Shown here one piece after another: positions 13,601-63,667 of a stretch of 64,000 bases of DNA (within the stretch, counting starts at the first letter, position 1; every line of letters begins with the position of its first letter). This DNA comes from Escherichia coli (GTDB lineage: Bacteria > Pseudomonadota > Gammaproteobacteria > Enterobacterales > Enterobacteriaceae), in assembly GCF_009931435.1 (NCBI RefSeq), contig NZ_CP043414.1; one strand, written 5' to 3'. The translations under genes were made by a program, and so were the position numbers. A model generated the notes under the pieces. That model was given only the letters and a program-made list of their open reading frames with translations, was not told where the DNA came from and made no database searches.

Positions 13601-14503
13601 CTCAATGTGAATACCCAACGGCAACACGTTGAGCACAGGTCCGGTAGCCGTCAGCGCAGCTGAGCCCAGTCGACGCATAAAGATAAATCCGGCGGCATAG
13701 TCCATGTGGTTGCACAATCGCCCCAGCCACAAAGCCGCCAGCGCAAGGGCTATATCGGTACGTTGTACACCTGAAAGTTGCGTAGCCAACTGGCGGAATT
13801 CCCCGCCGTTAAATTCCAGTTTCAGACGCAAAATATCTGCCGAGGCGCTGCGCCCAGGTAAAGGGGCTGGAGAAAGTGACGCGGGCGGTGGTAGTTGACG
13901 ACGTTGCTCCGCCCAGAATGCCGCATCACGCTGCCAGGCTTCGCTTTCGCGATACTGCTGGTACTCTTCCACGACATCAGCGAAAGGCGTAAACGGCGAA
14001 GCCGGTGTTGGTTCGCCACGCATCCATGCACAGTAAATGTTGGCGATCTGGCGGGTAATGACCGGGAAACTGAAGCCATCGACCAGCAAATGGTGGTAAC
14101 GCTGATACCAGTACCAGCGGTTATCTGCCACCTGTATCAGTTGATGAAAAACCAGAGGTTTACCGCTATCGACGCGCAGATCTTGTTGCAAATCCGCCTG
14201 CATTAATGCCTGCGCAATACCGTGCGGATCAATGTTAGTTCGCAGGTCGATAATTTCTGGCAGTTCGAACGTCAGCGCATCATCGACCCATTGCCAGACT
14301 TCGCCGTTATCTTCCGTAAAACGCATCCGCAGCGTATCTGCTTGCGCTAATCCGGCAACCACCGCGCGAGCCAGTAATGGCGCATCAACATCTCCGGTTA
14401 ACTCAACGTAATGCGCCACGCTCCAGGCGGAGGGTAAATCCGACAGTTTTTCTGCCATCCAGATGCCGGGCTGTGCGGCAACTAAAGGTAAATGCTGGCT
14501 CAT
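10622..14503 (-). CDS. entF: Enterobactin synthase component F (NRPS: C-A-PCP-TE)
   Basis: 1293-aa product from the ATG at 14503-14501 (MSQHLPLVAAQPGIWMAEKL...); adenylation motifs (FTSGSTGRPKG), PCP (GGHSLLA) and thioesterase (GYSLGG); the ORF extension to 14641 was rejected. Confidence 0.95.
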   Translation of the reverse strand: MSQHLPLVAAQPGIWMAEKLSDLPSAWSVAHYVELTGDVDAPLLARAVVAGLAQADTLRMRFTEDNGEVWQWVDDALTFELPEIIDLRTNIDPHGIAQALMQADLQQDLRVDSGKPLVFHQLIQVADNRWYWYQRYHHLLVDGFSFPVITRQIANIYCAWMRGEPTPASPFTPFADVVEEYQQYRESEAWQRDAAFWAEQRRQLPPPASLSPAPLPGRSASADILRLKLEFNGGEFRQLATQLSGVQRTDIALALAALWLGRLCNHMDYAAGFIFMRRLGSAALTATGPVLNVLPLGIHIEAQETLPQLASRLAAQLKKMRRHQRYDAEQIVRDSGRAAGEEPLFGPVLNIKVFDYQLDIPGVQTQTHTLATGPVNDLELALFPDENGDLSIEILANKQRYDEPTLIKHAERLKMLTAQFAADPARLCGDVDILLPEEYAQLAQINATQVEIPETTLSALVAEQAAKTPDAPALADARYQFSYREMREQVVALANLLRERGVKPGDSVAVALPRSVFLTMALHAIVEAGAAWLPLDTGYPDDRLKMMLEDARPSLLITTDDQLPRFSDIPNLTSLCYNAPLTPQGSAPLQLSQPHHTAYIIFTSGSTGRPKGVMVGQTAIVNRLLWMQNHYPLTGEDVVAQKTPCSFDVSVWEFFWPFIAGAKLVMAEPEAHRDPLAMQQFFAEYGVTTTHFVPSMLAAFVASLTSETARQSCATLKQVFCSGEALPADLCREWQQLTGAPLHNLYGPTEAAVDVSWYPAFGAELAAVRGSSVPIGYPVWNTGLRILDAMMHPVPPGVAGDLYLTGIQLAQGYLGRPDLTASRFIADPFAPGERMYRTGDVARWLDNGAAEYLGRSDDQLKIRGQRIELGEIDRVMQALPDVEQAVTHACVINQAAATGGDARQLVGYLVSQSGLPLDTSALQAQLREKLPPHMVPVVLLQLPQLPLSANGKLDRKALPLPELKAQASGRAPKAGSETIIAAAFSSLLGCDVQDADADFFALGGHSLLAMKLAAQLSRQFARQVTPGQVMVASTVAKLATVIDGEEDSTQRMGFETILPLREGNGPTLFCFHPASGFAWQFSVLSRYLDPQWSIIGIQSPRPHGPMQTAANLDEVCEAHLATLLEQQPHGPYYLLGYSLGGTLAQGIAARLRARGEQVAFLGLLDTWPPETQNWQEKEANGLDPEVLAEINREREAFLAAQQGNTSTELFTTIEGNYADAVRLLTTAHSVPFDGKATLFVAERTLQEGMTPERAWAPWIAELDIYRHDCAHVDIISPMAFEKIGPIIRAALNK

Positions 14504-14718
14504 TGCGCCTCCTGCTGCTGGATGAAATTCGCCGGTGTCAGAGTACGCCAGTGGGCGTCCAGCCACTGCTGGCAGGACGCCTGTGACTGCGGCTGACACA
14601 CAACATCCCAGCCTGCCGGTAAGGCGCACTGTTGCGGCCACAGACTGAATTGCCCCTGCGCATTGCGTAAAATGTAAAACACGCCCTGCGGATCATCGAA
14701 GGGATTACTGAATGCCAT
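14500..14718 (-). CDS. ybdZ: MbtH-like protein YbdZ
   Basis: 72-aa MAFSNPFDDPQGVFYILRNAQGQFSLWP... from the ATG at 14718; the stop overlaps the entF start (ATGA). Confidence 0.9.
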   Translation of the reverse strand: MAFSNPFDDPQGVFYILRNAQGQFSLWPQQCALPAGWDVVCQPQSQASCQQWLDAHWRTLTPANFIQQQEAQ

Positions 14719-14720
14719 AT

Positions 14721-15923
14721 TCAACTCCTGTCATGGAAAAGTGGTTGCCAGAGGTCGATTAGCCCCTGCATCAAGCCACCGCGCCAACAAAGCGCATCAT
14801 GTCCGCCGTCAACCTGACGCCAGAAAATGGATTCTTTTAGGGGGGGTAATTGCGCATACAGCGCCTGATTGGCCCGCATAATCATCGGCTCGCGAAGACC
14901 CGCTTCCAGCACAATGCGCAGACCTTCGGCGCTAACTTCACCAGCTTTGAGCTGTTCAAGTAACATGCCCTCTTGCTGACCGCTCCGGTGCGGCCACCAG
15001 TACGATCCCGACTGGCTTAATACACAGCCAAAGCGTTCAGGCCAGTGCAGTCCGGCATACAGCGCGGAAAGCCCACCAAAACTCTGCCCGGCGACCACAG
15101 TACGATCGGCGCGATCGCTAAAGGGGGCGATAGTTTTCACCTGGGGTAATAACTCTTGCTGTACTGCCAGCCAGAAATCCGCATTACATGGCAGTTCGTG
15201 GGCACGTTGCGTGGTGTCGATAGCGTCGATCAACACGTACACGGCGGGAGGAAGTTGCTGACGATGGGTCAACGAAGTCAGCGCAGGCCAGACGGGCATA
15301 CTCTGCGCCCAAAATTCGCCATCAAGTAAAACTGCCAGCGGACGTTCTTCTGCTGTTGCATCGCCGGTGGTAAAAATCCATACACGGCGTGAATTTTTCA
15401 ACCGTTCACTTTTCCAGATAATTTCTTTGGCAGGCGTTTCTGGCGCTTGCGGACAATCCCATCCTGGTTGCAGGGGCGCTTGCGGCATTTCGAGTGCAGA
15501 AACAGCGTGCCCTCGCCCGCCTTTCCAGCTTTGTGGATTCAGCGGATCGGCTATCGCCAGGGGTAATAGTTTTCGCCAGCCTTCGCGCAATTCGAGGCGA
15601 TCAGGTGATGGAGCAGAAAAAATGTCATCACGTTCGGTAGGAATAAAACAGTAGCTGCCGCGCCAGTTGGCATTGAGTTGTGTCGTCCACTGCCAGACAT
15701 CGGTCCCTGCAATTCGCTGCATCGACTGGGGCTGGCTGTTCTGATGGTGATCGGTCACGCCAGTGATATAGACCCATACGCGCTTTATCGTCGAGTGGTC
15801 TTCAGAACCTTGTGGATCACGCCACCAGAAAGTGACCTGATACATTTCGTCATTCAGACGCTGACATTCCGGGCCATGTTTCGACTGCCACCAGCTCTCA
15901 CTTCCTACTTTTAACGCCGTCAC
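14721..15923 (-). CDS. fes: Enterochelin esterase Fes
   Basis: 400-aa ORF MTALKVGSESWWQSKHGPE... with serine hydrolase motif GQSFGG; directly upstream of ybdZ-entF. Confidence 0.92.
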   Translation of the reverse strand: MTALKVGSESWWQSKHGPECQRLNDEMYQVTFWWRDPQGSEDHSTIKRVWVYITGVTDHHQNSQPQSMQRIAGTDVWQWTTQLNANWRGSYCFIPTERDDIFSAPSPDRLELREGWRKLLPLAIADPLNPQSWKGGRGHAVSALEMPQAPLQPGWDCPQAPETPAKEIIWKSERLKNSRRVWIFTTGDATAEERPLAVLLDGEFWAQSMPVWPALTSLTHRQQLPPAVYVLIDAIDTTQRAHELPCNADFWLAVQQELLPQVKTIAPFSDRADRTVVAGQSFGGLSALYAGLHWPERFGCVLSQSGSYWWPHRSGQQEGMLLEQLKAGEVSAEGLRIVLEAGLREPMIMRANQALYAQLPPLKESIFWRQVDGGHDALCWRGGLMQGLIDLWQPLFHDRS

Positions 15924-46040: not shown

Positions 46041-46094
46041 CATCCAACCGCAGCATGTTCTTGCTTAAGACGTGCTGCGGCATAATCCCAATGA

Positions 46095-46679: not shown

Positions 46680-49600
46680 TATGCAAGCCTCACAATATAG
46701 TTAAATGCGATGTTTTTGACGGTGTTTTCCGCGTTACCAGCAGCGTTAACGGTGATGGTGTGTCCATGTGAGCCAATCGCAACCGAGTGCGTATGAGCAC
46801 CAATACCGACAGTATGTGCGTGTGCACCTGCGCTTGCTGCAGTGCCGGACAGTGAGTGGGTATGAGCACCATCTGATGATGTCTTCCCTGCATTACGAGT
46901 CTGGCCACTACCGCTTGTTGTGCTCATAATCCCCGCGCTTGGATTTGAAATCGCGGTATAACCATTAGGGAAAATGCTCGTGTTCGTGCCACCAAATGCA
47001 CCGGAACTCTTGTGTTGGTGCGCACCGGCACTATTTGCGGTCCCGCTAATACTATGGGTATGCGCCCCGGTGTTATTCGTGGATTTGGTTCCGTAATCAA
47101 ACGACGATGTGGTTTTCGTCCCCAAATCCGTACTGGATGCGCTGGCGCTGTGGGTATGCGATTTAATGCCGTCCTGTTCCTGAGACAATACGGCCCGACC
47201 ACTGGCAGGTTTGCCCTTAATCGTCCAGCCACGCATATCAGGGATCACGCCTGACGGATAAGCCGCTGCAAGTTTCGGGTAGGCAGATTTGTCAAAAGCC
47301 TGCCCCTGCATCAGGGCATAGCCAGACGGAACGGTATCTGATGGCCACGGGATTGGTGCGCCGACTGGGTAGCTTTCTGGTGGAAGATTTTTCGAGGTAT
47401 AAACTTCTGCCCAGTCTTCCTCAAAACCATAGCCATCTCTTGAGGAACGGTAGAACAGACCTCCATTTCTGTAATGCGCCTTCATCTGCAGGGTCCGGCA
47501 ACTTCCGACTCCGGTATAGAAGTTAACCAGAATATAGCTGTCGCCAGAGCGGGTGACATTGTAAGCGCCTGATTCGGCATTCCAGGGAACGCCACCATCC
47601 GCATCGGCATATGTATCCGTTGCCCTTCTGGCAAAAGCAGCCACATGCGCGGCGGTTAAAGTAATATCTTTGGAACCATCAAACTCAACACCAGAAACCA
47701 GTCTTGGCGTTTGCAGCTTTGTTGCTGTTAATGCATTACCGTTCAGACTTGCGGACAGTTTGGTTCCAATAATCAGTTCGCCGGTTGCGTTATCAATAGC
47801 AAACGGTCTTAATGTATTCCAGCCACCATAAACATCACCTTGATTGGTAAGCAGCAGGTAAGTTTTAGCGCCATCATTACGCCATAATGCACCATACTCC
47901 CCACCTATCATTCGAATCTGATTACCACCACGCGCTACAATTTCGTCTGTGGCAAAAAGTTTTTTGCACGACAAGTTATCGTTAACGATTAACGAATGAG
48001 ACTCATAAAAACCACGCCCACTCTTAAAATCAAGGATAACGTCCGCCGCGATACATTCAGTCGCCGGATTTGTTGCCCCAAACTTATAGGTCGTATCATT
48101 AACAACGAGATCAGCACCAGGTGCGGATATTGACAGGCCATCTTCGATAAACGCAAAAACAGGGAAAGCAGCGCCATCAACATAGAACACAGAGCGCAAA
48201 TCATCGCCCTTATTACTCATCATTATTGAGTGGATGGCTCGTTCATTGTTTTGATATTGCCAGAACATTCCATAAGCATAACGCCCCCTGTCAGTCCAGC
48301 CACCAGGCATAACAAATCCGTTAAACTCGCAGTTATTCATCGGATCGCCTGCGGTTCGCGTTGCCGTGGTGATAATGACCCTTGATGCCAGTTCGCTTAC
48401 TGAGCCAGCAGAACGCATAACAACAACAGGGTAATATTTTCCAGATGTTGCACCTGCAGGAGCGTTAACCCGCACATAACGCATACCACGCTTATCAGCA
48501 AAGTCTGTTTTACTGACCGCGTTAATGTTGTTCAGGAAGCGTCCCTTATCGGGTATATCAGCGCCGTTCTGGTCTTTCTGCAGACGTTTCTCTGCATTGT
48601 CATAGGCTGATTTTACTGCCTTTGGCGTTGCCGCCAGCGTTTCAGACGTACTGTTGGTCGCACTGCTGAGCTGTACTACCCCCTTTTTCGTCGTGCTCGC
48701 ATCCTCAAGCGCCACGGCGGATGCAATATCCTCTGCCCGTTTTGCCGCTGTCTCGGCGCGCGTTGCCGCGGATTCCGCCGTACTTTTGCTCTGAGCTGCC
48801 GCCGTCGCACTGCCAGCTGCCTCTGTCGCCTTCGTGGATGCCGTCGTGGCGCTGCTCTTCGCTGCTGACGCTTGTCTGGTCGCCTCATCTTTTGAAGCAG
48901 ACGCAGATGATGCCGATGACGCCGCCGAACTGGCTGACGATGCGGCAGCCGTTTTTGAGGATTCTGCGCTGGTTTCCGACGCTTTCGCGTTCGTTTCGGA
49001 TGTCTTCGCTGCGGAAGCAGAACTCGCTGCTGCGCTGGCCTGTTCAGTGGCTTCGCCAGCCTTCGTTGTGGCTGTTGAAGCAGACGATGCGGCACTTTCT
49101 GCCGACTTTCCGGCAGCGGTGGCACTGGCTGAGGCCTGCCCGGCACTTGTTGACGCGGCGCTGGCAGATGATGCAGCCGCTGTTTTTGAGTCTGCTGCTG
49201 CGGAGGCACTCTGTTCCGCTGCCGTCTCAGAAGACTTAGCGTTCGTCTCGGACGTTTTTGCCGCCTTCGCGGAATTTCCTGCCGCCGTTGCCGAGGAAGC
49301 TGCGCTACTGGCGCTCGAGGATGCGTTCGTTTCTGATGATTTCGCTGCCTCTTTTGAGGCCGCCGCATCCCTGGCTGAGGTGGCAGCTTCTGACGCTTTC
49401 CTGGTCGCGGTGGATGCAGAAGTGGCTGCTGATTGTTGTGACGCTGCGGCATTCGTTTCTGACGTTTTCGCCGCACCGGCACTGGTGGCCGCCGCGCTTT
49501 TTGAGGACTCTGCAGCGGCAGCACTTTTTTCCGCTTCAGTGGCCTTTGCTGATGCCGTTCCTGCGCTGGAAGATGCTGACTGAGCCGACGACGCGGCCTG

Positions 49601-50086
49601 TCCGGCTGACGTGCTGGCTGCGCGTGCTGAGCCTGCAGCATCAGTCGCATGGGTTGCCGCCTCACTGGCAGATGTGCTGGCATCGCCGGCTGACTTCTTC
49701 GCGGCTGCCGTGTTTTGTGCCACCGCGGACGCGTTACGCGCCACCTCTTCCACCATCAGTTCAAAACGGCGCAGAGCCTCCGGACGGGCATCATCCTCCG
49801 TCATGGCACCGAGAAAATCATTCAGCGTACCGGGTCGGGAATCTTCATACACGGTGATGGTCCCGGCATGTGACGGCGGGAATCCTTCCACCAACAGAAT
49901 AACGCTGTACTGACCGTACTCAACGTCCATGCTGTAACGCCCGGCTTCATCCGGATTTTCTGAGGCCAGCGTGTTCACCACCACCGCGGTGCTGTTACGT
50001 TTTGCTTTCAGCTGGATTGTGCAGTTCTGTACCGGTTTTCCTGTGCCGTCTTTCAGTACACCTGAAATCTTTACTGCCATATTCAC
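46679..50086 (-). CDS. stf: Side tail fibre protein Stf (lambda Stf / StfR-like)
   Basis: 1135-aa [40 protein letters not shown]...; long Ala/Ser/Thr-rich repetitive shaft; C-terminal His-rich GAHTHS-type motifs and ...[13 protein letters not shown]. Confidence 0.9.
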
Positions 50087-50096
50087 CCCACAAAAA

Positions 50097-50118
50097 AGCC
50101 CGCCTGAACAGGCGGGCT
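50097..50118 (-). terminator. Intrinsic terminator hairpin between lom and stf
   Basis: agcccgcct / aggcgggct stem with a 4-nt loop, preceded on the plus strand by aaaaaa (a U-tract on the minus-strand transcript). Confidence 0.6.
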
Positions 50119-50144
50119 GTCATAACACTGTGTTACCTGGCTAA

Positions 50145-50744
50145 TCAGAACTTATAACCGACACCCACGATGAAACCGTCAGTGCGCCAGTCGCCACTGC
50201 CGGAGCCTTCATAAGCAATATCAATGGCCACGGATTCGGTCGGGTTAAACTACACGCCAGCTCCCCACGCCAGAGACGTGTTGCTGTGGCGACCGTCATC
50301 ACTTCCGGTCAGCACGTCGTGCGTTTTCCCCTTGTTGTCAGTTACGCGGAGATAATCCCCGGAGAAAGTCGACACACGGCTGTAAGCCATACCCGCCATC
50401 GCATACGCGCTGAACCATTCATTCACGCGCACAGACGGCCCCACCATCACGCTGAACCAGCGGTTACGCACGGAATCTTCATGCCAGCGGGTATTGCTGT
50501 AACGGGTAAGCTGGCGATTCTTGTCTCCTGCATAGCTGAATGACGTCACCAGCCCCAGTGTGTCCGTAAACTCATAACGGTATTTCACGTTAATCCCGTT
50601 AAGATCATCGCTGCCGGGAACGTTCGTCGAGGCATGAAGATACCCCGCGCTCAGCGTGGACTGATGTTCAGATGCCCATGCAGGCGCACCGGATACGGTC
50701 AGACAAATGGCTGCGGACAAAATGGCGGCATAAAGTTTACGCAT
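50145..50744 (-). pseudogene. lom: Lom-like outer membrane protein gene interrupted by an in-frame amber codon
   Basis: 164-aa ORF MRKLYAAILSAAICLTVSGAPAWASEHQSTLSAGY... stops at TAG (50252-50250); the same frame continues FNPTESVAIDIAYEGSGSGDWRTDGFIVGVGYKF to a TGA at 50147-50145, with Q expected at the TAG position. Confidence 0.75.
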
Positions 50745-50813
50745 AATTACCTCTCGCTTTTCTGCAATAAAAAAGGCACCATTTCTGGTGCCCTTATATG
50801 GGTTATAACAATT

Positions 50814-53800
50814 TCAACGAATACTGATGCCGGAAGCGGCTTTTTTGGTCACAATCACCGTACAGTCGGTGATATTACCTGCCCACTGATTGCCTTTATG
50901 GAAAACCTTAAACTCCAGAGTGACGCTTCCCCTGCCACTCGGCATATCAATAACCGCACTGTAGCTACCGGGAATGGCCCCTTTAGTTTCTCTGGATGCG
51001 ATTAATACACCGTTTTTGCGAACTTCAAAACCATAACCCGTGTATCTTGTACCTCCCGGGTTATTACCACTTCCCGGATCGCTATACGCTATTCCGTTAA
51101 AGATAATGGGCGGAATAATGATTTGACGGTCAAAGTTATGATCATCGCTGATGGTGACTGTAACCGTCCCGTTTGGTGTTTCCGTGTTACCCCACGTACC
51201 AGCCTGTTTCGGAAATGATTTGGATACAGCTTTAACGAAGTCACCTCTGACCTGAGTCGCCTCCAGCATGCCCTTAATTGTACAGTTTTCATTTACCGTG
51301 ACATTGTTGAGCGTCCCGGCGTTCGCATTCACACTGCCACTGATATCCGCATTTTTAGCGGTCAGCTTTCCGTCTGATGTCAGGGAAAATACCGGTGGAT
51401 TTCCACCGCTGGTAATGGTGGGGGCCGTCAGGCGCTTCAGGAACACGTCGTTCATGAATATCTGGTTGCCCTGCGCCACAAACATCGGCGTTTCATTCCC
51501 GTTTGCCGGGTCAATAAACGCGATACGATTGGCGGCAACCAGAAACTGGCTCAGCTTGCCTTCCTCCGTGTCCTCCATGCTGAGGCCAATACCCGCGACA
51601 TAATGTTTGCCGTCTTTGGTCTGCTCAATTTTGACGCCCCACATCGCATTCCATTTATCGTTAGCGTCCTTCCACTCTTTCGAAAACTCATCCAGTCTGC
51701 TGGCGTTATCCTCCGTCAGATCAACTTTTTCCAGCAGCTCTTTACCGAGATGGGATTCGGTTATCTTGCCTTTGAAAAAATCCAGGTAACCTTCCGCATC
51801 ATCGCTCGCCCGACCAACAGCCTCCACGAATGCCGATTTGCCAACGGTGTTCACACTGCGAACGTAAAAATAATAATCATGGCCCGGTTTGATATTGATA
51901 CTGGCGGCTATCCAGTACAGTGCCGTACCAAGATAACGCGCGCTGGTTTCAACCTGCCTGATATCCGCAATCCGTTTTTCCGAGAACCAGAACTCAAACT
52001 GTACCGTCGGGTCATAAACCGCAAGATGCGGCGTGGCGGTTATCTGAAAATAGCCCGGCGTCAGCTCAATCCGCGACGGCGCTGCCGGTGCGGCAATCCG
52101 GAACGATACCGACGCCGGATCGCCCTGCTGTCCCCACGCATTTACCGCCCGGACTGTCAGCGTGTACCGTCCCAGCGCCAGTTGCGTGAAGCGGTATGTG
52201 GTTTCCGTCGTCCGGGCCGTGCTGACCAGCCGCTCACTGCCGTCATCCGCTGTTACGGTCAGACGGAGCAGGAAGCTCACGCCCTTCACCACCTTCGGCG
52301 TGTCCCAGCGCGCCAGCACCTGATATTCCCCGCTGTCTGCGGTGACTTCGGCAGTCAGGTGCTGCACCGCTGGCGGCGTGACACCATTCACCGTGCCGCT
52401 CTGGTCGCCGTCAAAGTGCGCCCCGTTATCCACGATGGCTTCTTTTTCCGGTACATGCTGCACGGCGGTGATGGCATACGTGCCGTCGTCGTTCTCACGG
52501 ATACTCACGCAGCGGAACAGGCGCTGGCGCAGCGTCGGCAGCTTCAGCCCCCACACGCTGTATTCAGCAACGCCGTCAGGAACACGGCTCACTTTCACCT
52601 TCACGCCGTCGGTGACGGACTGAACCTCCACGCTGACCGGATTGCCACTTCCGTCAACCAGGCTTATCAGCGTGGTACCGGAGGATGGCAGCGTGATTTC
52701 ACGGTCGAGCGTCAGCGTCCGGGTCTGGCTGTTTACCGCCAGCACGCGCCCGCCGGTGCTGATACCGGCATAGTCATCATCACAGATTTCAATGACATCG
52801 CCCGGCACATGGCGAAGCCCTTCTGCGCCCACGCTGAAGTCCACGGTCTGCGTTTCCAGCAGTTCTGTTTTAATCAGCCATAGCCCGGCGCGATGTGCCT
52901 GCCCCCGGCTGGTACAGCCAAAGGCATCCATCTTCGTGACGTTACGACCGTAACGGGCAATGGCCTGCGTGTCCTCCACAAGCTCTGTCGCCGTCTCCCA
53001 GCCGTTATTCGGGTCAATCCAGTTCACCTCAACGGCATTATGGCGGTCCTTCAGGGCGCTGAAGCTGTAGCGGAACGGCGCGCCATCATCCGGCATCACC
53101 ACATTACTGCGGTTATAGGTCCACACCTTATCCGATGGTCGGTCCTGCACGAACGTCAGCGTCTGCCCGTTCCATACCGGCATACAGCGCATCGCCGAGC
53201 AGAAATCACTGAGCACATCCCACGCCTTGCGCTGTGTGGTCAGGTACGCATTACAGGTGATGCGCGGCTCCGTGCCGCCAAAGCCGTCCGGCACTGACTG
53301 GTCGCAGTACTGGCCGATGACATACAGCGCCCATTTATCCACATCCGCCGCACCAAGACGTTTCCCCATGCCGTAGCGCGGATGGGTCAGCATATCCCAC
53401 AGACACCAGGCCATGTTGTTGCTGTATGCCGGTTTAAACGTTCCGTCCCAGATACCGCTGTATTGCCGCGTCTGCGGGTTATAGTTCGACGGCACCTGCA
53501 GAATGCGCCCGCGCAGATGATAATTACGGCTCACCTGCTGGCTGCCGAACTGCTCCGAATCCACCTGCACGCCGACCAGTGCCGTGTTCGGGTAGCCCTG
53601 TTTCACATCGATGATTTCGGTGTATGACGACCAGAGCGTTTTGTTCTGCAGCTGGTCTGTGGTGCTGTCCGGCGTCATCCTGCGCATCCGGATATTGAAC
53701 GGGCGCGGCGGCAGGTTACCCACCACCACCGAGGCCAGATACTGCGAGGTGGTTTTGCCCTTAATGGTGATGTCTTTTTCCGTCACCCAGCCACCATTAC

Positions 53801-54227
53801 GCTGGATCTGAACCAGCAGGCGGACTTCCGACGGATTCCTGTCCCCCTTTGAGGTGGTTTCCACCAGTGCCTGCACGCCGAAGGTAAAACGCAGTCGGTC
53901 AATGTTTGCCGACGTGATGGTCCGGGTGATCGGCGTGTCGTATTTCACTTCCGTACCCAGCACCGTCTCGGAGCCGGAGGATTCAAATCCCTCCGGCGGT
54001 GTCTGCTCCTGCTCACCGGCCCGGAACACCACCGTGACGCCGGAGATATTGGTATTCCCCTCACTGTCCAGCACTGGCGTACTGTTCAGCAGCACGCTTT
54101 TTAATCCATCCACCGGACCTTCAACCGGCCCTTCGCTGATGGCATCGATCACACTCAGCAACTGCGTGGACTTCAGGTTGTCCTTCGCTTCGCGCGGAGT
54201 ATGCCCCTTACTGCTGCCTTTACCCAT
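50814..54227 (-). CDS. J: Tail tip / host specificity protein J
   Basis: 1137-aa [57 protein letters not shown]..., lambda J-like over most of its length with a diverged C-terminus. Confidence 0.93.
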
Positions 54228-54286
54228 TCCTCACGCTCCATAAACGACAAAACCGCCCGGAGGCGGTTTCACATAAACGTTTTTCA

Positions 54287-54958
54287 TCAGCGACCAATCA
54301 CCACAACCTGACCACCATCCCCTTCGTCTGCCGTGCTGATCTCCTGAGAGACCACCCGCGACCCCACGCGCATTTCACCGTACAGAACCGGCAGAACATT
54401 GCCCTGGGCAACCATGTTATCCAGTGAGGAGAAATAGGTGTTCTGTTTGCCGTTATCCGTTGTCTGTGTACGGGGAGTTCTGGCTTTCGGTGCCAGCATC
54501 TGCGCCACACCACCGAGCACCATACTGGCACCGAGAGAAAACAGGATGCCGGTCATACCACCGGCCCCAATGGCTGCCCCCCATGCTGCAAGGGTGGCCC
54601 CGGCGGTAAAGAATGATCCGGCAATGGCGGCAGCCCCCAGGACAATCTGGAATACGCCACCTGACTTGGCCCCGGCGACTCTGGGAACAATATGAATCAC
54701 AGCGCCATCAGGTAGAGTCTCATGTAACTGCGCCGTTAATCCGGACGTGCTGACATCCTGCCCGGCAATCCGTACCTGATACCAGCCGTCGCTCAGTTTC
54801 TGACGAAACGCCGGGAGCTGTGTGGCCAGCGCCCGAATGGCTTCAGCCCCCGTTTTCACACGAAGGTCGATGCGGCGGCCAAATCGTTGCAAATCCCCGT
54901 AAAGGCAGATGCGCGCCATGCCCGGTGACGCCAGAGGGAGTGTGTGCGTCGCTGCCAT
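54287..54958 (-). CDS. I: Tail tip assembly protein I
   Basis: 223-aa ORF MAATHTLPLASPGMARICLYGDLQRFGRRIDLRV... (lambda gpI-like). Confidence 0.9.
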   Translation of the reverse strand: MAATHTLPLASPGMARICLYGDLQRFGRRIDLRVKTGAEAIRALATQLPAFRQKLSDGWYQVRIAGQDVSTSGLTAQLHETLPDGAVIHIVPRVAGAKSGGVFQIVLGAAAIAGSFFTAGATLAAWGAAIGAGGMTGILFSLGASMVLGGVAQMLAPKARTPRTQTTDNGKQNTYFSSLDNMVAQGNVLPVLYGEMRVGSRVVSQEISTADEGDGGQVVVIGR

Positions 54959-55599
54959 TTGTCGGTATACCTCTCTCGTTTGCTCAGTTGTTCAGGAATA
55001 TGGTGCAGCAGCTCGCCATCACCACAGTAAATGGCGGCATGATTCGGCACCGATGAACCAAAACAGCACAGCAGCACATCGCCCGGTTGTGCTGATGACA
55101 ACGGCACCTGATACAGCCCTGTGGCCTCCAGATTATCCAGATAGAGATTCTGACCGTGACGCCACCAGTCATCCTCGCGATGAAAATCCGGCATCTCAAT
55201 CCCCGCCAGATGATAAGCATCCCGGAATAGCGTGTAACAGTCCGTCACCCCGTGTTCAAAGCGCCGCCCGGTGAGATGCGGCACACAGCGGAACTTATGA
55301 ATCGTCCCCCGGCAGACCAGCCACCACGGCAAATCACTCTGCACCTGCAGCCGCCGGTCAGCCTCACTCAGCCAGGGCAGACCACCGGGGTGGCTGTGGA
55401 CCAGCGCCACAATCTCACCCTGCATCTCTGCCCGCAGCCAGTCCTCCGGCGACATCCGGAAATACTCCTCCGGCTCACCGGAGATATTCACGCAGGGAAA
55501 ATATCTTTCCCCTTCCGGCGTTCTCACCACGAAGCCGCACGACTCCGCTGGCGCACATCGCCGGGCGTGCGCCAGAATCGCTGATTCTGTCTCTGTCAT
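54856..55599 (-). CDS. K: Tail tip assembly protein K (JAMM/MPN plus NlpC/P60 domains); 3' boundary relative to lambda K uncertain
   Basis: 247-aa ORF MTETESAILAHARRCAPAESCGFVV... with HSHP motif; starts 5 nt after the L stop and overlaps I by 103 nt. Confidence 0.8.
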   Translation of the reverse strand: MTETESAILAHARRCAPAESCGFVVRTPEGERYFPCVNISGEPEEYFRMSPEDWLRAEMQGEIVALVHSHPGGLPWLSEADRRLQVQSDLPWWLVCRGTIHKFRCVPHLTGRRFEHGVTDCYTLFRDAYHLAGIEMPDFHREDDWWRHGQNLYLDNLEATGLYQVPLSSAQPGDVLLCCFGSSVPNHAAIYCGDGELLHHIPEQLSKRERYTDKWQRRTHSLWRHRAWRASAFTGICNDLAAASTFV

Positions 55600-55604
55600 G
55601 GGAT

Positions 55605-56303
55605 TTACTGCGAAAGTTTGTTAATGGAAAGGAAGCCGCCAAAGTTGCCGACATTATTGCGGAACTTACAGCCACTCAGGCATTTGCTGCATTTATCCTT
55701 CGTGATATCGGACGTCGGCTGATCATATTCATCCGCGACAGCCGGACCTTGATAACCGCACTCATCACCGCGATAGGTCCAGGTGCAGGTATTAGCCAGC
55801 ATGATGCGCCCCGGAAAAACGGCACCATCCGTTTCCGTCGGTGTGGACAACACAAAGGAGGCACTGACCGCACTCAGTTCGCTGCACTGCTCGATGCGCC
55901 AGCGGCTGATCACCTCCTGCTCCGGATCGGCGTCGCTGTTTCCGTTGACGAAGTTCACCGCATCCAGAAAACGGGCGTAAACCTTACGCCTGACCACCGT
56001 TCCGCCGACCAGACTCTGCAGGTCTTCCGCCATCCCCGTGACCATGCCGTGCAGGTTAGAAACCGTCAGTATCGGACGGGCAGCACTGCCCTTGCCGTTC
56101 AGTTCAAATCCCGTCCCCTGAATGGGGTATGCCTGATACTGCCGCCCCTGCCAGGTAACCGGCTCACCTTTTTCGTTTTGCTCATTACAGAAAAAATAAC
56201 GTTCTCCACCGACCTCTGTCAGGTCGATTTCCCAGAGCACCACGCTGGCCGACTGCTCCGCACGGGTGCATTCATTCAGTGTTTCCTGCCGGATATCCTG
56301 CAT
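55605..56303 (-). CDS. L: Tail tip assembly protein L
   Basis: 232-aa ORF MQDIRQETLNECTRAEQSASVVLWEIDLTEVGGERYFFCNEQ... Confidence 0.9.
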   Translation of the reverse strand: MQDIRQETLNECTRAEQSASVVLWEIDLTEVGGERYFFCNEQNEKGEPVTWQGRQYQAYPIQGTGFELNGKGSAARPILTVSNLHGMVTGMAEDLQSLVGGTVVRRKVYARFLDAVNFVNGNSDADPEQEVISRWRIEQCSELSAVSASFVLSTPTETDGAVFPGRIMLANTCTWTYRGDECGYQGPAVADEYDQPTSDITKDKCSKCLSGCKFRNNVGNFGGFLSINKLSQ

Positions 56304-56632
56304 CAGTTCACCACCTGTTCAAACTCTGCGCTGAACTCAACACGCAGCATACTGACCCGCGACGACCATTTTGCGCAGGTCACCTTTATCTGCCGCCACT
56401 CATAAGGCGGCGTCCACAGAAAGGATTTCCAGCCCCCGTGCTCTTCCAGAAACGACTCCAGTACCGTGGCCTCCTCACGGGGGACAGAAAGCGTCACGCT
56501 GTACGTTTTCAGGTTGGCATTCAGCCCGGCAGGCGCTCGCTGGGAATAGCCATCACCAAAGCGCACCTTTCTTACAGAAGGGACCGAAGCCACATCCATA
56601 CCGGGTTTCACTTTCCAGCGGAAGGTCTTCAT
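56303..56632 (-). CDS. M: Tail tip assembly protein M
   Basis: 109-aa ORF MKTFRWKVKPGMDVASVPSVRKVRFGDGYSQRAPAG... Confidence 0.9.
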   Translation of the reverse strand: MKTFRWKVKPGMDVASVPSVRKVRFGDGYSQRAPAGLNANLKTYSVTLSVPREEATVLESFLEEHGGWKSFLWTPPYEWRQIKVTCAKWSSRVSMLRVEFSAEFEQVVN

Positions 56633-59208
56633 CGTCCACCTCCGGAGAACAGGCCACCATCACGCATCTGTGTCTGAATTTCATCACGGGCACCCTTGCG
56701 GGCCATGTCATACACTGCTTTCATCATCTGTGGACCTGGCAGACCATTCGTACCGTCGTTCTGAATCACCACGTTGTTGTTCTGCTCAAACCTGATACCC
56801 TCTGAACGCCGCATTTGCGCCGGACTTCCGGTGCCACCGACATAACCGCCGGTGGCATAGCCGCGCATCAGCCGGTAGAGATTTCCCACGCCAATCCGGC
56901 TGGTTGCCTCCTTCGTGAAGACAAATTCACCACGGTGAACAATCCCCGCTGGCTCATATTTGCCGCCGGTTCCCGTAAATCCTCCGGTTGCAAAATGGAA
57001 TTTCGCCGCAGCGGCCTGAATGGCTGTGCCGCCTGACGCGGATGCGCCGCCACCAACAGCCCCGCCAATGGCGCTGCCGATACTCCCGACAATCCCCACC
57101 ATTGCCTGCTTAAGCAGAATTTCTGTCATCATGGACAGCACGGAGCGGGTGAAGCTGCGCCAGTTCTGCTCACTGCCGGTCAGCATCGCCGCCATATTCT
57201 GTGCAATACCATCAAAGGTCTGCGTGGCTGCACTTTTTACCTGCGACATACTGTCCGTGGCGCTCTCTTCCCACTCACTCCAGCCGGACTTCAGGCCTGC
57301 CATCCAGCTCCCGCGAAGCTGGTCTTCAGCCGCCCAGGTCTTTTTCTGCTCTGACATGACGTTATTCAGCGCCAGCGGATTATCGCCATACTGTTCCTTC
57401 AGGCGCTGTTCCGTGGCTTCCCGTTCTGCCTGCCGGTCAGTCAGCCCCCGGCTTTTCGCATCAATGGCGGCCCGTTTTGCCCGTTGCTGCTGTGCGAATT
57501 TATCCGCCTGCTGCGCCAGCGCGTTCAGGCGCTCCTGATACGTAACCTTGTCGCCAAGTGCAGCCAGCTGGCGTTTGTACTCCATCGTCTCATCTTTATG
57601 CGCCAGCAGGGATTTCTCCTGTGCGGACAGCTGGCGACGTTGTGCCGCCTCCTCCAGTACCGCGAACTGACTTTCTGCCTTCCACAAATCCCGGCGCTGC
57701 TGGCTGATTTTCTCATTTGCTCCGGCATGCTTCTCCAGCGTCCGGAGTTCAGCCTGAAGCGTCAGCAGGGCAGCATGAGCACTGTCTTCCTGACGATCGC
57801 CCGCAGACACCTTCACGCCGGACTGTTTCGGCTTTTTCAGCGTCGCTTCATAATCCTTTTTCGCCGCCGCCATCAGCGTGTTGTAATCCGCCTGCAGGAT
57901 TTTCCCGTCTTTCAGTGCCTTATTCAGTTCTTCCTGACGGGCGGTATATTTCTCCAGCGGCGTCTGCAGGCGTTCGTAAGCCTTCTGCGCCTCTTCGGTA
58001 TATTTCAGCCGTGATGCCTCAGACTCGACCCAGTCCTTTGCTGCCATCTCTCTGGCCTTTTCAAGATCGGCCTGCAACGTGGCGGCTGAAAGCCCAAGTT
58101 GCGCATTCGCTCTGTCCTCCCATGCTCCCCGGAGATTGGCAAGAAATGCTGAGGTTTTACCGCGCCGGTGGCTCCGGCTCTGATACCACTGCCATTTTTT
58201 GTCCGCCTCATCAAAAGCCTTTTCTGCTTTCTCCAGCATTCCCTGGGCAGTGTCCGGGCGACCAATATCCAGCACCGAATCCCACATGGATTTGAATGCC
58301 CGTGCTGTCCTGTCTGCCCAGGTCTCCAGCGTGCCCATGTTCTCTTTCAGGCGGCGGGTCTGGTCATCAAACCCTTTCGTTGCGGCCTCGTTCGCCGCCT
58401 GCAATGCCCCGGCTTCATCGCCGGAACGCTGCAACTGAGCAACATACGCAATCTGCTCCGCCGTCACGTTATGGAACTGGCGTGCCATCGCCGTCAGCCC
58501 CGACGTCGGGTCTGTGGTCAGCTTCCCGAAGGCTTCAGCGACCTTGTCCACCTCCACGCCGGATGCAGAGGAGAAACGCGCCACACTCTGGCTGATGGAC
58601 GCAATCTGAGCCTCACCGCTTACCCCCGCCTTAACCAGTGCGCTGAGTGACTCGCTGGTCTGGTTAAACGTCAGCCCTGCCGCCTGCCCGGCTCTGGACA
58701 GGACCAGCATGCGATCTGCCGTCAGACCCGACTGATTGCCGGAAAGGACCAGCGTTTTGTTGAAATCGGACAGGGTTGAGTTGCCCTGATACCAGGCATA
58801 CGCCAGCGCACCGGTCGCCACCGCCAGCGAGGTGGCCCCGACCATCGGCAGGGTGATCGCACCGGCAAGCCCCCTGAACATGGGGATCATCCCGCCGAAG
58901 GAGTCCTTAACCTGACCACCCTGTTGCAGCAGGATCAGCCACGGACTTTGCCCGCCTGCAAACTGCGTGGCCACGTCGGTGAACTGTGCAGGCAGCATAC
59001 GCATGGCGGCTTTATACTGCCCGACGGAAATCCCCGCTTTCTGTGCAGCCAGCGCCTGTCGGCTCAGCGACTGTTCAACGACTGCCGCTGTTTTTTTCGC
59101 ATCAGTTTCCGTACCGGAAAAATGACGCCTGACTCTGGCCATCTGCTCGTCAAATCTGGCCGCATCCAGACTTAAATCAACGACCAGATCGCCTACCGGT
59201 TCAGCCAT
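56629..59208 (-). CDS. H: Tail tape measure protein H
   Basis: 859-aa ORF MAEPVGDLVVDLSLDAARFDEQMARVRRHFSGTETDAKK... Confidence 0.93.
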   Translation of the reverse strand: MAEPVGDLVVDLSLDAARFDEQMARVRRHFSGTETDAKKTAAVVEQSLSRQALAAQKAGISVGQYKAAMRMLPAQFTDVATQFAGGQSPWLILLQQGGQVKDSFGGMIPMFRGLAGAITLPMVGATSLAVATGALAYAWYQGNSTLSDFNKTLVLSGNQSGLTADRMLVLSRAGQAAGLTFNQTSESLSALVKAGVSGEAQIASISQSVARFSSASGVEVDKVAEAFGKLTTDPTSGLTAMARQFHNVTAEQIAYVAQLQRSGDEAGALQAANEAATKGFDDQTRRLKENMGTLETWADRTARAFKSMWDSVLDIGRPDTAQGMLEKAEKAFDEADKKWQWYQSRSHRRGKTSAFLANLRGAWEDRANAQLGLSAATLQADLEKAREMAAKDWVESEASRLKYTEEAQKAYERLQTPLEKYTARQEELNKALKDGKILQADYNTLMAAAKKDYEATLKKPKQSGVKVSAGDRQEDSAHAALLTLQAELRTLEKHAGANEKISQQRRDLWKAESQFAVLEEAAQRRQLSAQEKSLLAHKDETMEYKRQLAALGDKVTYQERLNALAQQADKFAQQQRAKRAAIDAKSRGLTDRQAEREATEQRLKEQYGDNPLALNNVMSEQKKTWAAEDQLRGSWMAGLKSGWSEWEESATDSMSQVKSAATQTFDGIAQNMAAMLTGSEQNWRSFTRSVLSMMTEILLKQAMVGIVGSIGSAIGGAVGGGASASGGTAIQAAAAKFHFATGGFTGTGGKYEPAGIVHRGEFVFTKEATSRIGVGNLYRLMRGYATGGYVGGTGSPAQMRRSEGIRFEQNNNVVIQNDGTNGLPGPQMMKAVYDMARKGARDEIQTQMRDGGLFSGGGR

Positions 59209-59641
59209 ACCGGACTCCTCCTGCGATCCCTTCTGATACTGTCATCAGCATTACGTCATCCTCCGTCATGTCCGCCACATCCGGGGAAGCGGGGATAACT
59301 TCATTCCCGTCCGGGCCAAAGCGGACACCTCCGGCAAGCCCTGCCGCTTTCTGCATCAGCACATCATCTTCAGGCTCTTCGTCAGCCTCGCGCCGGTTAA
59401 GCAGACTGAAATCCAGCGGATGCATATCCGGATCGCTGAAAAACAGGCTGAGCACGGTGTACGTCAGCCCGGAAAAGTGCATATCCAGCAGAACATCATG
59501 AAAATAATGGGTACTGTAAAAGCGGTGCCAGTCGGCATACTCCGTGGATGACATCCCGGCAAGCATGGCACGCCAGTCGGGTCGCCCCATCTCACGCGCC
59601 AGTTTCAGGGCAAAACTCAGCTCACCGTCGAACACTTTCCC
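59201..59641 (-). CDS. T: Tail assembly chaperone T segment, expressed as a G-T fusion by -1 programmed ribosomal frameshift
   Basis: ORF in the -1 frame relative to G, beginning at the slippery site; no independent ribosome-binding site or ATG is expected. Confidence 0.8.
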   Translation of the reverse strand, partial: GKVFDGELSFALKLAREMGRPDWRAMLAGMSSTEYADWHRFYSTHYFHDVLLDMHFSGLTYTVLSLFFSDPDMHPLDFSLLNRREADEEPEDDVLMQKAAGLAGGVRFGPDGNEVIPASPDVADMTEDDVMLMTVSEGIAGGVRYG

Positions 59642-60039
59642 GCAGAAACAGGCTCTGCAGGCCCGGCGTCCTCTGTCTGTTCAGGGGTATTATTCACAAC
59701 AAACTCATACATTCCGGACAGCCGGTACACCACGTTTTCAGCATGAGAAATTGCCTCTGTGGGCCAGGTGGTAAGCACTTCCTGTTCAATCTGTTTAACG
59801 GCTTCATTCATGGACGGCATCTGCGTCTTCTTCGGATGGTTATGCCACAGGGACATCGCCACCACACAAGCACCGGTTCTGATGACGTCTTCCACAGTAA
59901 CCTGCCGGTTGCTGTCTGACTCCGCCTGTTCTGCCTGCCGTTTCATCAGGGCGAGATGCTCAATACGCTGCAGGGCTGACAGTTCAGAAAGCGTGACGGT
60001 CACGCCGTTATGTTCAAATGATTCGGTTTTCAGGAACAT
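59617..60039 (-). CDS. G: Tail assembly chaperone G
   Basis: 140-aa ORF MFLKTESFEHNGVTVTLSELSALQRIEHLALMKRQAEQ... ending ...SAGKCSTVS. Confidence 0.9.
   Translation of the reverse strand: MFLKTESFEHNGVTVTLSELSALQRIEHLALMKRQAEQAESDSNRQVTVEDVIRTGACVVAMSLWHNHPKKTQMPSMNEAVKQIEQEVLTTWPTEAISHAENVVYRLSGMYEFVVNNTPEQTEDAGPAEPVSAGKCSTVS
59635..59641 (-). other. Slippery heptamer G GGA AAG for the G/GT -1 frameshift
   Basis: Minus-strand reading GCG GGA AAG in the G frame, with the T frame reading GGG AAA GTG; identical in form to the canonical lambda G-T slip site. Confidence 0.8.
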
Positions 60040-60054
60040 CGCTGACTCTCCGGA

Positions 60055-60795
60055 TTAACTGGCGGTGACGGTGATTTCTGCAACCGCAGCAAACTCACCA
60101 TTACCGGATACGACCGGAATGTTGACCTTACCTGCAGCAACGCCATTCACGGTGATGGTCATACCACTGACCGACACGGTGGCTTTTGTTTTATCCGCTG
60201 ACACCGCACGGAAGCTCTTGTCGGTTGCGCCTTCCGGCTGGAATGCCACGGTCAGCGTGGTGCTCTGCCCTTTCACCACCGAGGTGCTGGCAGGCGTCAC
60301 AGTCATGCCGGTTGTCGCCGTCACCGTGCTGCGATCTTCTGCCATCGACGGACGGCCCACATTGGTGACCTTCACCGTGCGGGTGATCACTTCCTTCGCC
60401 GTCACCGCCTTACCGATACTGCTGACCCAGCCGCGGAACACATCGACCGTGCCGTTCGGGAAGCGGATTTTATAGGCTCGGGTATCCCCTTCATTAAACC
60501 ACGCCAGCAGCGCCTGCTGCCCCTGCTCTCCGGGCATCCACGCCAGCGTGAAGCTGGTATCTCCGGCAGATTTCTGCCCCTGTCCGGTCGCGGTCCAGTC
60601 CGCATCTTCATCATCGAGATAACTGTCGTCATAGGACTCAGCGGTCAGTTCGCCGGGCGTCAGGTCTTTAACTTTAGCCAGACGCGACCAGTCAACGTCT
60701 GAAAGCGGGTTCGCATAAGGGTCACCGTTCCCCTTATAAACCCACAGTGTGGTCCCGGCCCCTTTCACCGGTGCCAGAGGATTTGGTGTTGGCAT
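60055..60795 (-). CDS. V: Major tail tube protein V
   Basis: 246-aa product from the ATG at 60795 ([34 protein letters not shown]...); C-terminal Ig-like region. Confidence 0.92.
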
Positions 60796-60802
60796 ATCGT
60801 CC

Positions 60803-61198
60803 TCACATTTCATAGGTAATGACATAAGTCAGATCGGCTGAACTCCACAGGCCCGCATCATCGTCGCGCCGGTAGTCATAGCCACTGGCCACCATACTGG
60901 TGATCAAATCTGACAGTGCCGGGATATCGCTCATCACCGGATAAATCCGGGACTCCATCCACGAATCCAGCTCTGAATCCGGCACCTGAGCAGGCAGGAA
61001 AACTTCAATATGCAGCTCCGCCTGCCAGGTATCGCTGTCCAGCTCTTCGCCCGTGTATTCAGCGCCGGTGAGATAAACGGCAACTGCCGGAAAATCCGCC
61101 TCATCAAAAACAGCGGGGCGACCATCAAAAAACGTCGCCCCGGTGTCATGCTTCTCCAGTGCATCCAGTACGGCTGCACGGAGTTCAGTATGTTTCAT
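60803..61198 (-). CDS. U: Tail terminator protein U
   Basis: 131-aa [39 protein letters not shown]... Confidence 0.9.
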
Positions 61199-61773
61199 CG
61201 CTTTATTACCATCCTCAGTTGATGCTGCAGCGCATAGCCCAGCTCTTTCGGAAGACGCTCACGCCGTATCCGCTCAATATTCTGTTTAAACGCCGTGGTC
61301 AGCGGCACCGCCATCGGAATTTTCACCACATCAATGGGGTAACGATTTTTCCCGGCCACACGCTGCATAACATGCCAGCGGCCATTTTTCAGTTGCTGAA
61401 TAAACGCGCCGGGAATACGACGGTTTCCCACCACAAGCACGCTGCCGCCACCTTTCAGGGCTGAACGCTGCCCCTTTTTACGACGCCTGCGTCGGGACAG
61501 GACAATCCGCGCGTTACCCAGCTTTATTACGGGCAAATCCCCCCGGTTAACCTTGATTCTGGCCTGCGGATTTTTGACCGTGGCCCTTTTCAGCCTGGCC
61601 CTTTCCTTTACCAGTTTCCGGCGTACCTTTGTCTCACGGGCAACCTGTGACGCCGACTGCGATATCGCGGATGAAGCAACGCGGTTAATGGCCATTGCGG
61701 CGGCACCGGGCACCGCCGTTCTGCTGATACGGCTGAGGTTTTCAACGGCCTGCTCAAGACCTTTTATGGCCAT
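61195..61773 (-). CDS. Z: Tail completion protein Z
   Basis: 192-aa ORF MAIKGLEQAVENLSRISRTAVPGAAAMAINRVASS... Confidence 0.9.
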   Translation of the reverse strand: MAIKGLEQAVENLSRISRTAVPGAAAMAINRVASSAISQSASQVARETKVRRKLVKERARLKRATVKNPQARIKVNRGDLPVIKLGNARIVLSRRRRRKKGQRSALKGGGSVLVVGNRRIPGAFIQQLKNGRWHVMQRVAGKNRYPIDVVKIPMAVPLTTAFKQNIERIRRERLPKELGYALQHQLRMVIKR

Positions 61774-61784
61774 ACATCCCCCTT

Positions 61785-62138
61785 TCAGCGGCGACGGTTA
61801 ACGGCAGGCGGTACGCCCCGCCCAAGCCAGAGATGACAGCTTCCGCCATCATCCGGCGAAATCCGGTCTATCCAGAAGTTTTCCTCACCGATGGTCAGCG
61901 TGTCGCCGCGCCGCAGCTGCCGCACATCATCAGTCCGGACAAACAGGAACGGGCTGGAGCCTTCAACGCGCACGCCCTGTCCGGCATAGCTGATATTTTC
62001 AGGATCATCAAAAACACCACGTATCACAGCACCGGACTGCTCACCGGATGTCATGGTGGCTGACGTTCCCATGTACCCGCGTATCGTTTCATCGGCGCGG
62101 GCAATGGCAGCATCGAACAGGTTATCGAAATCAGCCAC
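61785..62138 (-). CDS. FII: Head-tail joining protein FII
   Basis: 117-aa ORF MADFDNLFDAAIARADETIRGYMGTSATMTSGEQ... Confidence 0.9.
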   Translation of the reverse strand: MADFDNLFDAAIARADETIRGYMGTSATMTSGEQSGAVIRGVFDDPENISYAGQGVRVEGSSPFLFVRTDDVRQLRRGDTLTIGEENFWIDRISPDDGGSCHLWLGRGVPPAVNRRR

Positions 62139-62149
62139 AGCGCCTCCCG

Positions 62150-62545
62150 TTATTGCATTCTGGCCAGGCCGCGCTCTGTCATTTCAGCTGCCACACCGGC
62201 AGAGACACGGAACGCCGTTCCCGGCAGCACAAATGCCACAGCCTCATCCCGCGTGGCGTGAAGTGCATCAGTATGCAGCGTCACCAGTGCCACAACCGTG
62301 ACCAGATCAGCCGTATCAGTCACGGTATCCGGCTGCGCTGATACAACCTCATTTTCATGTCCGGTCAGCGCATTTTCCGGGCTGACAGATGTGTCCTGAC
62401 CAGCAGCGTCATCCGTGTCATCAAGCTCCTCTTCCAGCTCTGCCACACGGAGTGCCAGTTCTTCTTTCGTCCCCGTCAGGCTGACATCACGGTTCAGTTG
62501 CTCACCCAGCACCTGAAGACGGGCAATCAGTTCATCTTTCGTCAT
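62150..62545 (-). CDS. FI: DNA packaging / head assembly protein FI
   Basis: Start taken at the internal ATG at 62545 (MTKDELIARLQVLGEQLNRDVSLTGTKEELALRVAEL...), giving 131 aa; the longer ORF start at 62584 was rejected. Confidence 0.85.
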   Translation of the reverse strand: MTKDELIARLQVLGEQLNRDVSLTGTKEELALRVAELEEELDDTDDAAGQDTSVSPENALTGHENEVVSAQPDTVTDTADLVTVVALVTLHTDALHATRDEAVAFVLPGTAFRVSAGVAAEMTERGLARMQ

Positions 62546-62586
62546 GGACTCCTCCACAGAGAGAAAATGGCCCCGAAGGGCCATGA

Positions 62587-63612: not shown

Positions 63613-63667
63613 AAAAAAATCCCGTAAAAAAAGCCGCACAGGCGGCCTTTAGTGATGAAGGGTAAGG

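Follow-up and report, generated by a model that had tools for sequence, protein, structure and literature searches.

The tail genes K and I of phage lambda and related phages are the closest described counterparts of the gene junction analyzed here. In the lambda RefSeq record (NC_001416), K is placed at 14276..14875 and I at 14773..15444, and the resulting 103-nt overlap has been part of the lambda annotation since 1982. Phage 21 (OL657228) likewise shows an overlap of 103 nt, with K at 14320..15063 (247 amino acids), I at 14961..15632 and a ribosome binding site annotated on the 5' side of the I ATG. Iyer, Burroughs and Aravind (2006; PMC1779556) described the N-terminus of I as a ThiS/MoaD-like ubiquitin-like domain and predicted that the JAB peptidase of K cleaves this domain off I at a conserved C-terminal glycine. 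Cryo-EM of lambda virions resolved only residues 134/135 to 223 of gpI, and gpK was not seen (PMC10721106, PMC12617516). The predicted cleavage would be consistent with virions that hold only the C-terminal part of gpI.

We analyzed a stretch of Escherichia coli DNA of 64,000 nt (the window), in which the minus-strand tail region of a prophage (45400-64000) begins near 45.4 kb. The ORFs at positions 1-44500 resemble in size those of the E. coli chromosomal genes cusCFBA/cusRS, nfrBA, ompT and appY, to which they may correspond, and no tRNA gene was found in the 64,000 nt of the window. The genes L, K, I and J are arranged in this order on a single strand and are highly similar to lambda at the nucleotide level, as in a lambda-type junction (Table 1). 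The ORF list of the window bore out the first-pass annotation in its description of the K and I frames: K consists of 247 codons from an ATG located 5 nt past the L stop to a stop at 54856, I starts at 54958, and the 103 nt from 54856 to 54958 are common to both ORFs, whose frames are one base apart. The ORF list gives MAATHTLPLASPGMARICLYGDL as the first residues of I, and I read from its most upstream ATG (ATG-1) opens with MAATHTLPLASPG.

Table 1 Features of the L-K-I-J region in the window
Feature	Position	Strand	Basis
Gene L, tail tip protein, 232 aa	55605..56303	-	ORF; syntenic with lambda L; 97-98% nucleotide match to lambdoid phages
Gene K, 247 aa	54856..55599	-	ORF; Pfam; same ORF in phage 21 and resequenced lambda
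K Prok-JAB/JAMM peptidase domain, residues 4-104	55288..55590	-	Pfam PF14464
K NlpC/P60 (C40) peptidase domain, residues 111-224	54928..55269	-	Pfam PF00877
K C-terminal tail, approximately residues 227-247	within 54856..55599	-	
Shine-Dalgarno-like GAGAGG for I, formed by K codons Glu-Arg (GAG AGG), 11 nt 5' of the I ATG	54970..54975	-	sequence
I ATG-1, formed by K codons AAA-TGG (Lys213-Trp214), classical lambda start	54956..54958	-	ATG conservation
Overlap, 5' part: I codons 1-13 against K residues 214-226 (conserved end of NlpC/P60 core)	54920..54958	-	substitution pattern
Second in-frame I ATG (Met14), alternative start giving a 210-aa I	54917..54919	-	aligns with starts of distant I homologs
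Overlap, 3' part: I codons 14-34 (beta1, beta2) against K C-terminal tail and TGA	54856..54919	-	substitution pattern; structure model
K stop TGA	54856..54858	-	
GTG on the K stop (GTGA, 54856-54859), candidate I start giving a 190-aa I	54857..54859	-	some annotations
Gene I, 223 aa	54287..54958	-	Pfam PF06805; 99% identity to lambda gpI
I MoaD/ThiS/SAMP-like beta-grasp (Lambda_tail_I) domain, residues 14-97	54668..54919	-	Pfam PF06805
I C-terminal domain, residues 134-223, part visible in lambda virions	54290..54559	-	cryo-EM of lambda
Gene J, central tail fibre, 1137 aa, 3' of I	50814..54227	-	ORF; synteny with lambda J

A region of 1.5 kb was 97-98% identical to phage 21, 434 and lambda-like phages. 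A three-way alignment of the window, lambda and phage 21 placed the I ATG and the K TGA at equal positions, and the window differs from lambda at only 2 of the 103 bases of the overlap (101/103 identical); both differences, at 54890 and 54878, are silent in I and alter K (Tyr to Cys and Val to Ala, respectively). The first-pass annotation had left a choice between the normal lambda arrangement and an anomaly, and had set an alignment to the lambda K-I junction as the test. Lambda K and I also overlap by 103 nt, with K ending at the TGA seen in the window, and the anomaly was thus refuted. With a 401-nt probe spanning the K-I junction, the junction was found in 4,350 of 5,426 complete E. coli genomes (approximately 80%), at 11,314 places. 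The K-I overlap of the window is the standard, already known arrangement of the lambda-type prophage tail operon, and it is present in most E. coli genomes.

Two features were observed beside these genes. The gap separating I from J contains a GC-rich hairpin, AAACCGCC-TCCG-GGCGGTTT, followed by TGTCGTTT (54250-54269, minus strand), and the phage 21 record carries an annotated terminator at the equivalent place. On the 3' side of J, uninterrupted ORFs of 1135 and 194 amino acids at 46095-50086 (minus strand) fit intact stf (side tail fibre) and tfa (assembly) genes by position and size; stf/tfa are disrupted in laboratory lambda.

The length of K had also been questioned in the first-pass annotation. 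This doubt was warranted in that the window K comprises 247 amino acids and the annotated lambda K 199, but the additional length is N-terminal and sits at the 5' end of the gene, outside the overlap. Lambda K is annotated at 199 amino acids because the 1982 lambda reference (J02459, NC_001416) lacks one G near position 14266 (approximately 55465 in the window), at which GGAGGC-TATTT in the reference aligns with GGAGGCGTATTT in phage 21 and with GGAGGAGTATTT in the window. K is thereby split in the reference: its frame is closed 5' of 14258, and a separate ORF of 76 amino acids (14133..14363) opens with MTQTESAILAHARRCAPAESCGFVV, which is the N-terminus of the window K. The extra G and an unbroken K ORF of 247 amino acids are present in four lambda-derived records, PV340536, OM418626 (lambda imm434), LC730321 (48,503 bp) and KT232076; OR474059 and OR974322 match the reference exactly and may derive from it. 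The normal full length of K is 247 amino acids. Our literature search found no published comment on the discrepancy in the lambda K reference.

Both peptidase domains of K were detected well above the Pfam cut-offs, with values of 3.4e-14 and 53.1 bits (cut-off of 25) for PF14464 (Prok-JAB) and of 5.6e-13 and 49.2 bits (cut-off of 23) for PF00877 (NLPC_P60). The motif HSHPGGLPWLSEAD at residues 68-81, together with Glu19, corresponds to the upstream Glu plus HxHx7Sx2D that characterizes JAB/JAMM (MPN+) peptidases, and assignment of the second domain to the NlpC/P60 (C40) family agrees with its Pfam score above the gathering value and with its conserved Cys and His. E19, H68, H70, S78, D81, C121, H187 and H199/H200 were invariant in a 14-member family alignment. 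From its sequence, K is predicted to be a two-peptidase (JAB/JAMM plus NlpC/P60) tail assembly protein with both domains and their catalytic motifs intact. Glu19 falls within the 48 residues missing from the 199-aa lambda annotation, so that expression or modeling of "lambda K" from J02459 or NC_001416 would provide an incomplete enzyme without the JAB catalytic Glu.

The window I is 99% identical to the lambda gpI chains in 8iyk and 9e7m. Pfam PF06805 (Lambda_tail_I) matched I with a value of 5.5e-28 and 97.6 bits (cut-off of 23.8), with residues 14-97 aligned to profile positions 2-83 of 83. In an AlphaFold model, residues ~11-98 had pLDDT values of 80-90, with beta1 at residues 14-19 and beta2 at 29-33, whereas residues 1-8 had values below 50 and residues 1-13 had no secondary structure and were predicted to be disordered. 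The top Foldseek matches of the model were SAMP1, MoaD, CysO, Urm1 and ubiquitin, with target TM-scores of 0.67-0.77. An alignment of 22 family members showed G21 and G101 to be invariant and L23, G27 and G96 nearly so. I is thus organized as an N-terminal beta-grasp domain, a Gly-rich hydrophobic linker and a C-terminal domain, and it belongs to the Lambda_tail_I/TAPI family by virtue of the Pfam match over the N-terminal domain and of the beta-grasp fold with a conserved Gly at the domain C-terminus. The literature search returned nothing on the gpI N-terminus.

For comparison of the junction among relatives, a first scan with the window I as query returned only loci of at least 98% identity, and the search was repeated with diverged I proteins for the constraint analysis. 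The survey of start codons covered 260 loci with both genes, from annotated phages and IMG/VR contigs. The exact lambda-type geometry, a 103-nt out-of-frame overlap between the lambda-aligned K TGA and I ATG, was found in 221 of these. It is this conservation, and not the size of the overlap, that leads us to regard the overlap as real: a chance overlap of such size would be unsurprising, given that approximately 21 and 13 extra open codons are easily obtained. More diverged relatives, with 46-63% I identity, have variants of 97 nt (18 loci) or 106 nt (8 loci), and an ATG is again present at the upstream end.

In each of the 221 loci of exact lambda-type geometry, the overlap opens with an ATG. 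Among 150 unique haplotypes, which are phylogenetically related so that counts do not represent independent events, just 5 of the 63 third positions of K codons from -149 to +39 were invariant: two in GAGAGG, the A of the I ATG, the third base of the Trp214 codon and one at +28. By comparison, 48 of the 50 upstream K third positions vary, whereas the K213 codon is AAA in 150/150 haplotypes. The third base of the Trp214 codon has no synonymous alternative; given that the T and G of ATG-1 are fixed by this codon, only the A of ATG-1 is informative. The 11-nt spacing between the Shine-Dalgarno-like element and the ATG is longer than optimal. On the basis of these sequence comparisons, both the Shine-Dalgarno-like element and ATG-1 appear to be under selection.

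Substitutions were counted by the Fitch method on a neighbour-joining tree (Table 2). The counts for I codons 14-33 follow the I frame, so that the final 60 nt of the overlap behave in evolution as sequence coding for I. A mainly K-coding pattern is retained in the first 39 nt, with K-synonymous change 2.5-fold lower than upstream. Deep splits between clades dominate a pairwise-diversity statistic, which for this reason departed in part from the tree counts over I codons 14-33, and the tree counts were relied on.

Table 2 Inferred substitutions (changes per site) by codon position in and around the overlap
Region	I position 3 = K position 2	I position 1 = K position 3	I position 2 = K position 1
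K-only upstream	0.72	6.28	1.98
Overlap, I codons 1-13	1.62	2.54	0.46
Overlap, I codons 14-33	4.50	1.35	0.85
I-only downstream	7.10	2.97	1.43

The best-conserved segment of the K tail, TGI(C/Y)NDL (TGICNDL in the window), is the out-of-frame reading of YGDLQRFG in I. Approximately 4.2% of I-synonymous mutations would generate a premature K stop, and for approximately 90 inferred changes at I third positions about 3.8 such stops were expected and none was observed, a rough estimate corresponding to a Poisson P of ~0.02. The K tail thus does not appear to be entirely free, in that its length seems, on this rough reckoning, to be kept.

Public annotations place the start of I at three positions, namely ATG-1, Met14 and the GTG on the K stop. 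ATG-1, which gives the 223-aa protein, is annotated in lambda and phage 21, and Tritos is also annotated with the classical ATG. It is the only start, preceded by a Shine-Dalgarno-like element, that is conserved clade-wide and apparently under selection, and dual reading of the 103-nt stretch with I starting at ATG-1 is therefore judged very probable. Initiation at Met14 instead would shorten the dual-coded stretch to 64 nt and leave the upstream 13 codons unread in the I frame. It would agree with the disorder predicted for residues 1-13 and the slight I-frame constraint on them, with the annotation of a 210-aa I in one cluster of 5,268 sequences, and with the distant I homologs (25-40% identity), whose start codon aligns exactly with Met14. 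Yet ATG, GTG and TTG are all missing at this position in 82 of the 221 lambda-type loci, with residue 14 being Leu or Val in several clades; no Shine-Dalgarno sequence lies upstream of Met14; and neither the invariance of the Shine-Dalgarno-like element and ATG-1 at K-synonymous sites nor the reduced K-synonymous change across codons 1-13 fits a start at Met14. We consider exclusive use of Met14 unlikely, although it may serve as the sole or an additional start in loci that have it, such as the window. Still less credible is a start at the GTG, which would reduce the overlap to 4 nt in the manner of classical stop-start coupling. Such a start, with a 190-aa I, is annotated in PV340536, KT232076 and the RefSeq record NZ_CP027105 (PGAP), and overlaps of 1-26 nt are usual in distant relatives; however, the GTG is missing from 50 of the 221 loci, codons 14-33 evolve with I-frame periodicity, and the Pfam domain of I begins at residue 14. 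We dismissed this start because beta1 and beta2 would be deleted, along with the conserved residues G21, L23 and G27, and its annotation is probably a systematic error. The junction is accordingly not one of ATGA/GTGA coupling: the GTGA is there, but the start within it is contradicted.

Two further explanations were considered. Loss of a stop codon in the window prophage, with extension of K into I, had been raised in the first-pass annotation, and the sole point in its favor is that the window K is longer than the annotated lambda protein. That length is accounted for by the single base missing from the lambda reference. The position of the K stop is shared to the nucleotide by lambda, phage 21, Tritos and the 221 loci, and none of these three phages or of the 150 haplotypes has an earlier K stop. 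Given that lambda carries the identical overlap and K stop, this reading is refuted, and we attach virtually no probability to it. A programmed -1 ribosomal frameshift in the overlap, comparable to that of lambda G/GT, might yield a K-I fusion protein; database ORFs do join NlpC/P60 and Lambda_tail_I domains, and rare fusions of TAPI to TAPK or TAPJ were noted by Iyer et al. (2006; PMC1779556). The fusion junctions, however, are scattered over many positions, some of them 5' of the overlap or accompanied by deletions, and almost all are singletons, for which reason we ascribe these ORFs to sporadic indels or to assembly or sequence errors. Inspection of the K frame of the overlap revealed no X XXY YYZ slippery heptamer, and the region is not unusually structured. 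With neither a conserved heptamer nor a defined fusion product, programmed frameshifting seems highly improbable here.

The best explanation, which we hold with strong confidence, is that this is the K-I junction of a lambda-type prophage tail operon in which I is initiated inside K and the shared stretch is read in two frames. The proposal that the 3' end of K is read in two frames, already made in the first-pass annotation, gains support from the comparative data. K and I would be translated from one late polycistronic mRNA, with I initiated independently at the internal GAGAGG and ATG-1; because I would initiate inside K, ribosomes would read the overlap in both frames. The first 39 nt are governed mainly by the end of the K core, with the 13-residue leader of I a loosely constrained passenger, and the last 64 nt by beta1 and beta2 of I, where the ~21-residue K tail is for the most part carried along, although its length is maintained. 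The overlap may serve to co-express a peptidase with its likely substrate, and the C-terminal domain of I becomes part of the tail tip. Coupling through RNA structure at the I start was rejected as a candidate, given that the 121-nt region examined for a structure sequestering this start folds no better than shuffled sequences (z = +1.22). In a consensus scan of the region for internal promoters or terminators, counts equaled the shuffle expectation.

Each gene may have gained a new terminal peptide by overprinting, the 13-residue leader of I having arisen over the K core and the ~21-residue K tail over beta1-beta2 of I. That these peptides represent a lambda-clade innovation, possibly with a function, is a tentative proposal that we regard as doubtful; alternatively, gene packing could have produced the arrangement as a neutral side effect. 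Under this proposal, the overprinted segments, and likewise the location of the I initiation site within K, could have a function; they might, for example, tune how much JAB peptidase is made relative to its ubiquitin-like substrate, with selection acting on the length of the K tail.

The discovery value of the overlap is small, and the by-products of the analysis are points of annotation, namely the missing base in the K reference and the placement of the I start. Automated pipelines frequently begin I at Met14 or at the GTG, of which the latter choice removes two strands from the ubiquitin-like domain; the comparison favors the upstream ATG. The junction is also a small, clean case of two frames constrained in complementary halves and might serve as a test case for the detection of overlapping genes.

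Among known systems, lambda shares with the window the L-K-I-J order, the out-of-frame overlap, the K TGA and the I ATG, with a nucleotide identity of approximately 97%, and differs in the K gene split in its reference, which is intact in the window and in the resequenced lambdas. Phage 21 and Tritos have a K of 247 amino acids, an I of 223 and 215 amino acids, respectively, and the same 103-nt overlap, and differ from the window by point substitutions only; the Tritos I is 76-77% identical and its locus has no GTG at the K stop. The T1-like, HK97-like, Neisseria, Serratia and Stenotrophomonas pairs (TAPK/TAPI; PMC1779556) have the same JAB plus NlpC/P60 protein, after which comes a ubiquitin-like I; the two genes are mostly neighbors with a slight overlap. 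In contrast to the window, their overlaps are short or absent, the I start corresponds to lambda Met14 and most K proteins end 4-10 residues past R224. Annotated K-I overlaps measure 1 nt in Enterobacter LAU1, 4 nt in Neisseria 2120, 8 nt in Serratia Carrot and Stenotrophomonas, 10 nt in Oekolampad, 20 and 26 nt in the T1-like BEC3 and VAC70, respectively, and 58 nt in mEp013; mEpX1 and Moraxella Mcat18 have none, with genes intervening between K and I. In distant relatives with 25-40% I identity, homology to K ends near K residue 226. Because overlaps in distant relatives span just 1-26 nt, reach 58 nt in a single phage or do not exist, an overlap of the length seen here is peculiar to the lambda-type clade. 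This long overlap is made up of the 13-residue extension of I, absent from distant I homologs, over the conserved end of K, and of the ~21-residue tail of K over beta1-beta2 of I. The K proteins of Neisseria 2120 (583-1338 of the locus) and Serratia Carrot (633-1508) also have a tail of about 20 residues past the conserved R224, with an overlap of only 4-8 nt; these tails are similar in length to those of lambda-type K, but sequence similarity is weak.

Other gene arrangements were observed in some relatives. The intervening genes are an extra 74-aa gene in mEpX1 (1215-1439 of the locus) and two opposite-strand genes in Moraxella Mcat18 (779-1401 of the locus), and in Cylindrospermopsis virus, a cyanophage, I-J is present with no adjacent K homolog.

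Overprinted phage genes such as lambda Rz/Rz1 and those of phiX174 likewise carry two frames in one stretch of DNA under asymmetric constraint. The K-I overlap differs from them in that it involves only the termini of adjacent genes on the same strand, with no embedded gene, and in that K-frame constraint prevails in one half of the overlap and I-frame constraint in the other.
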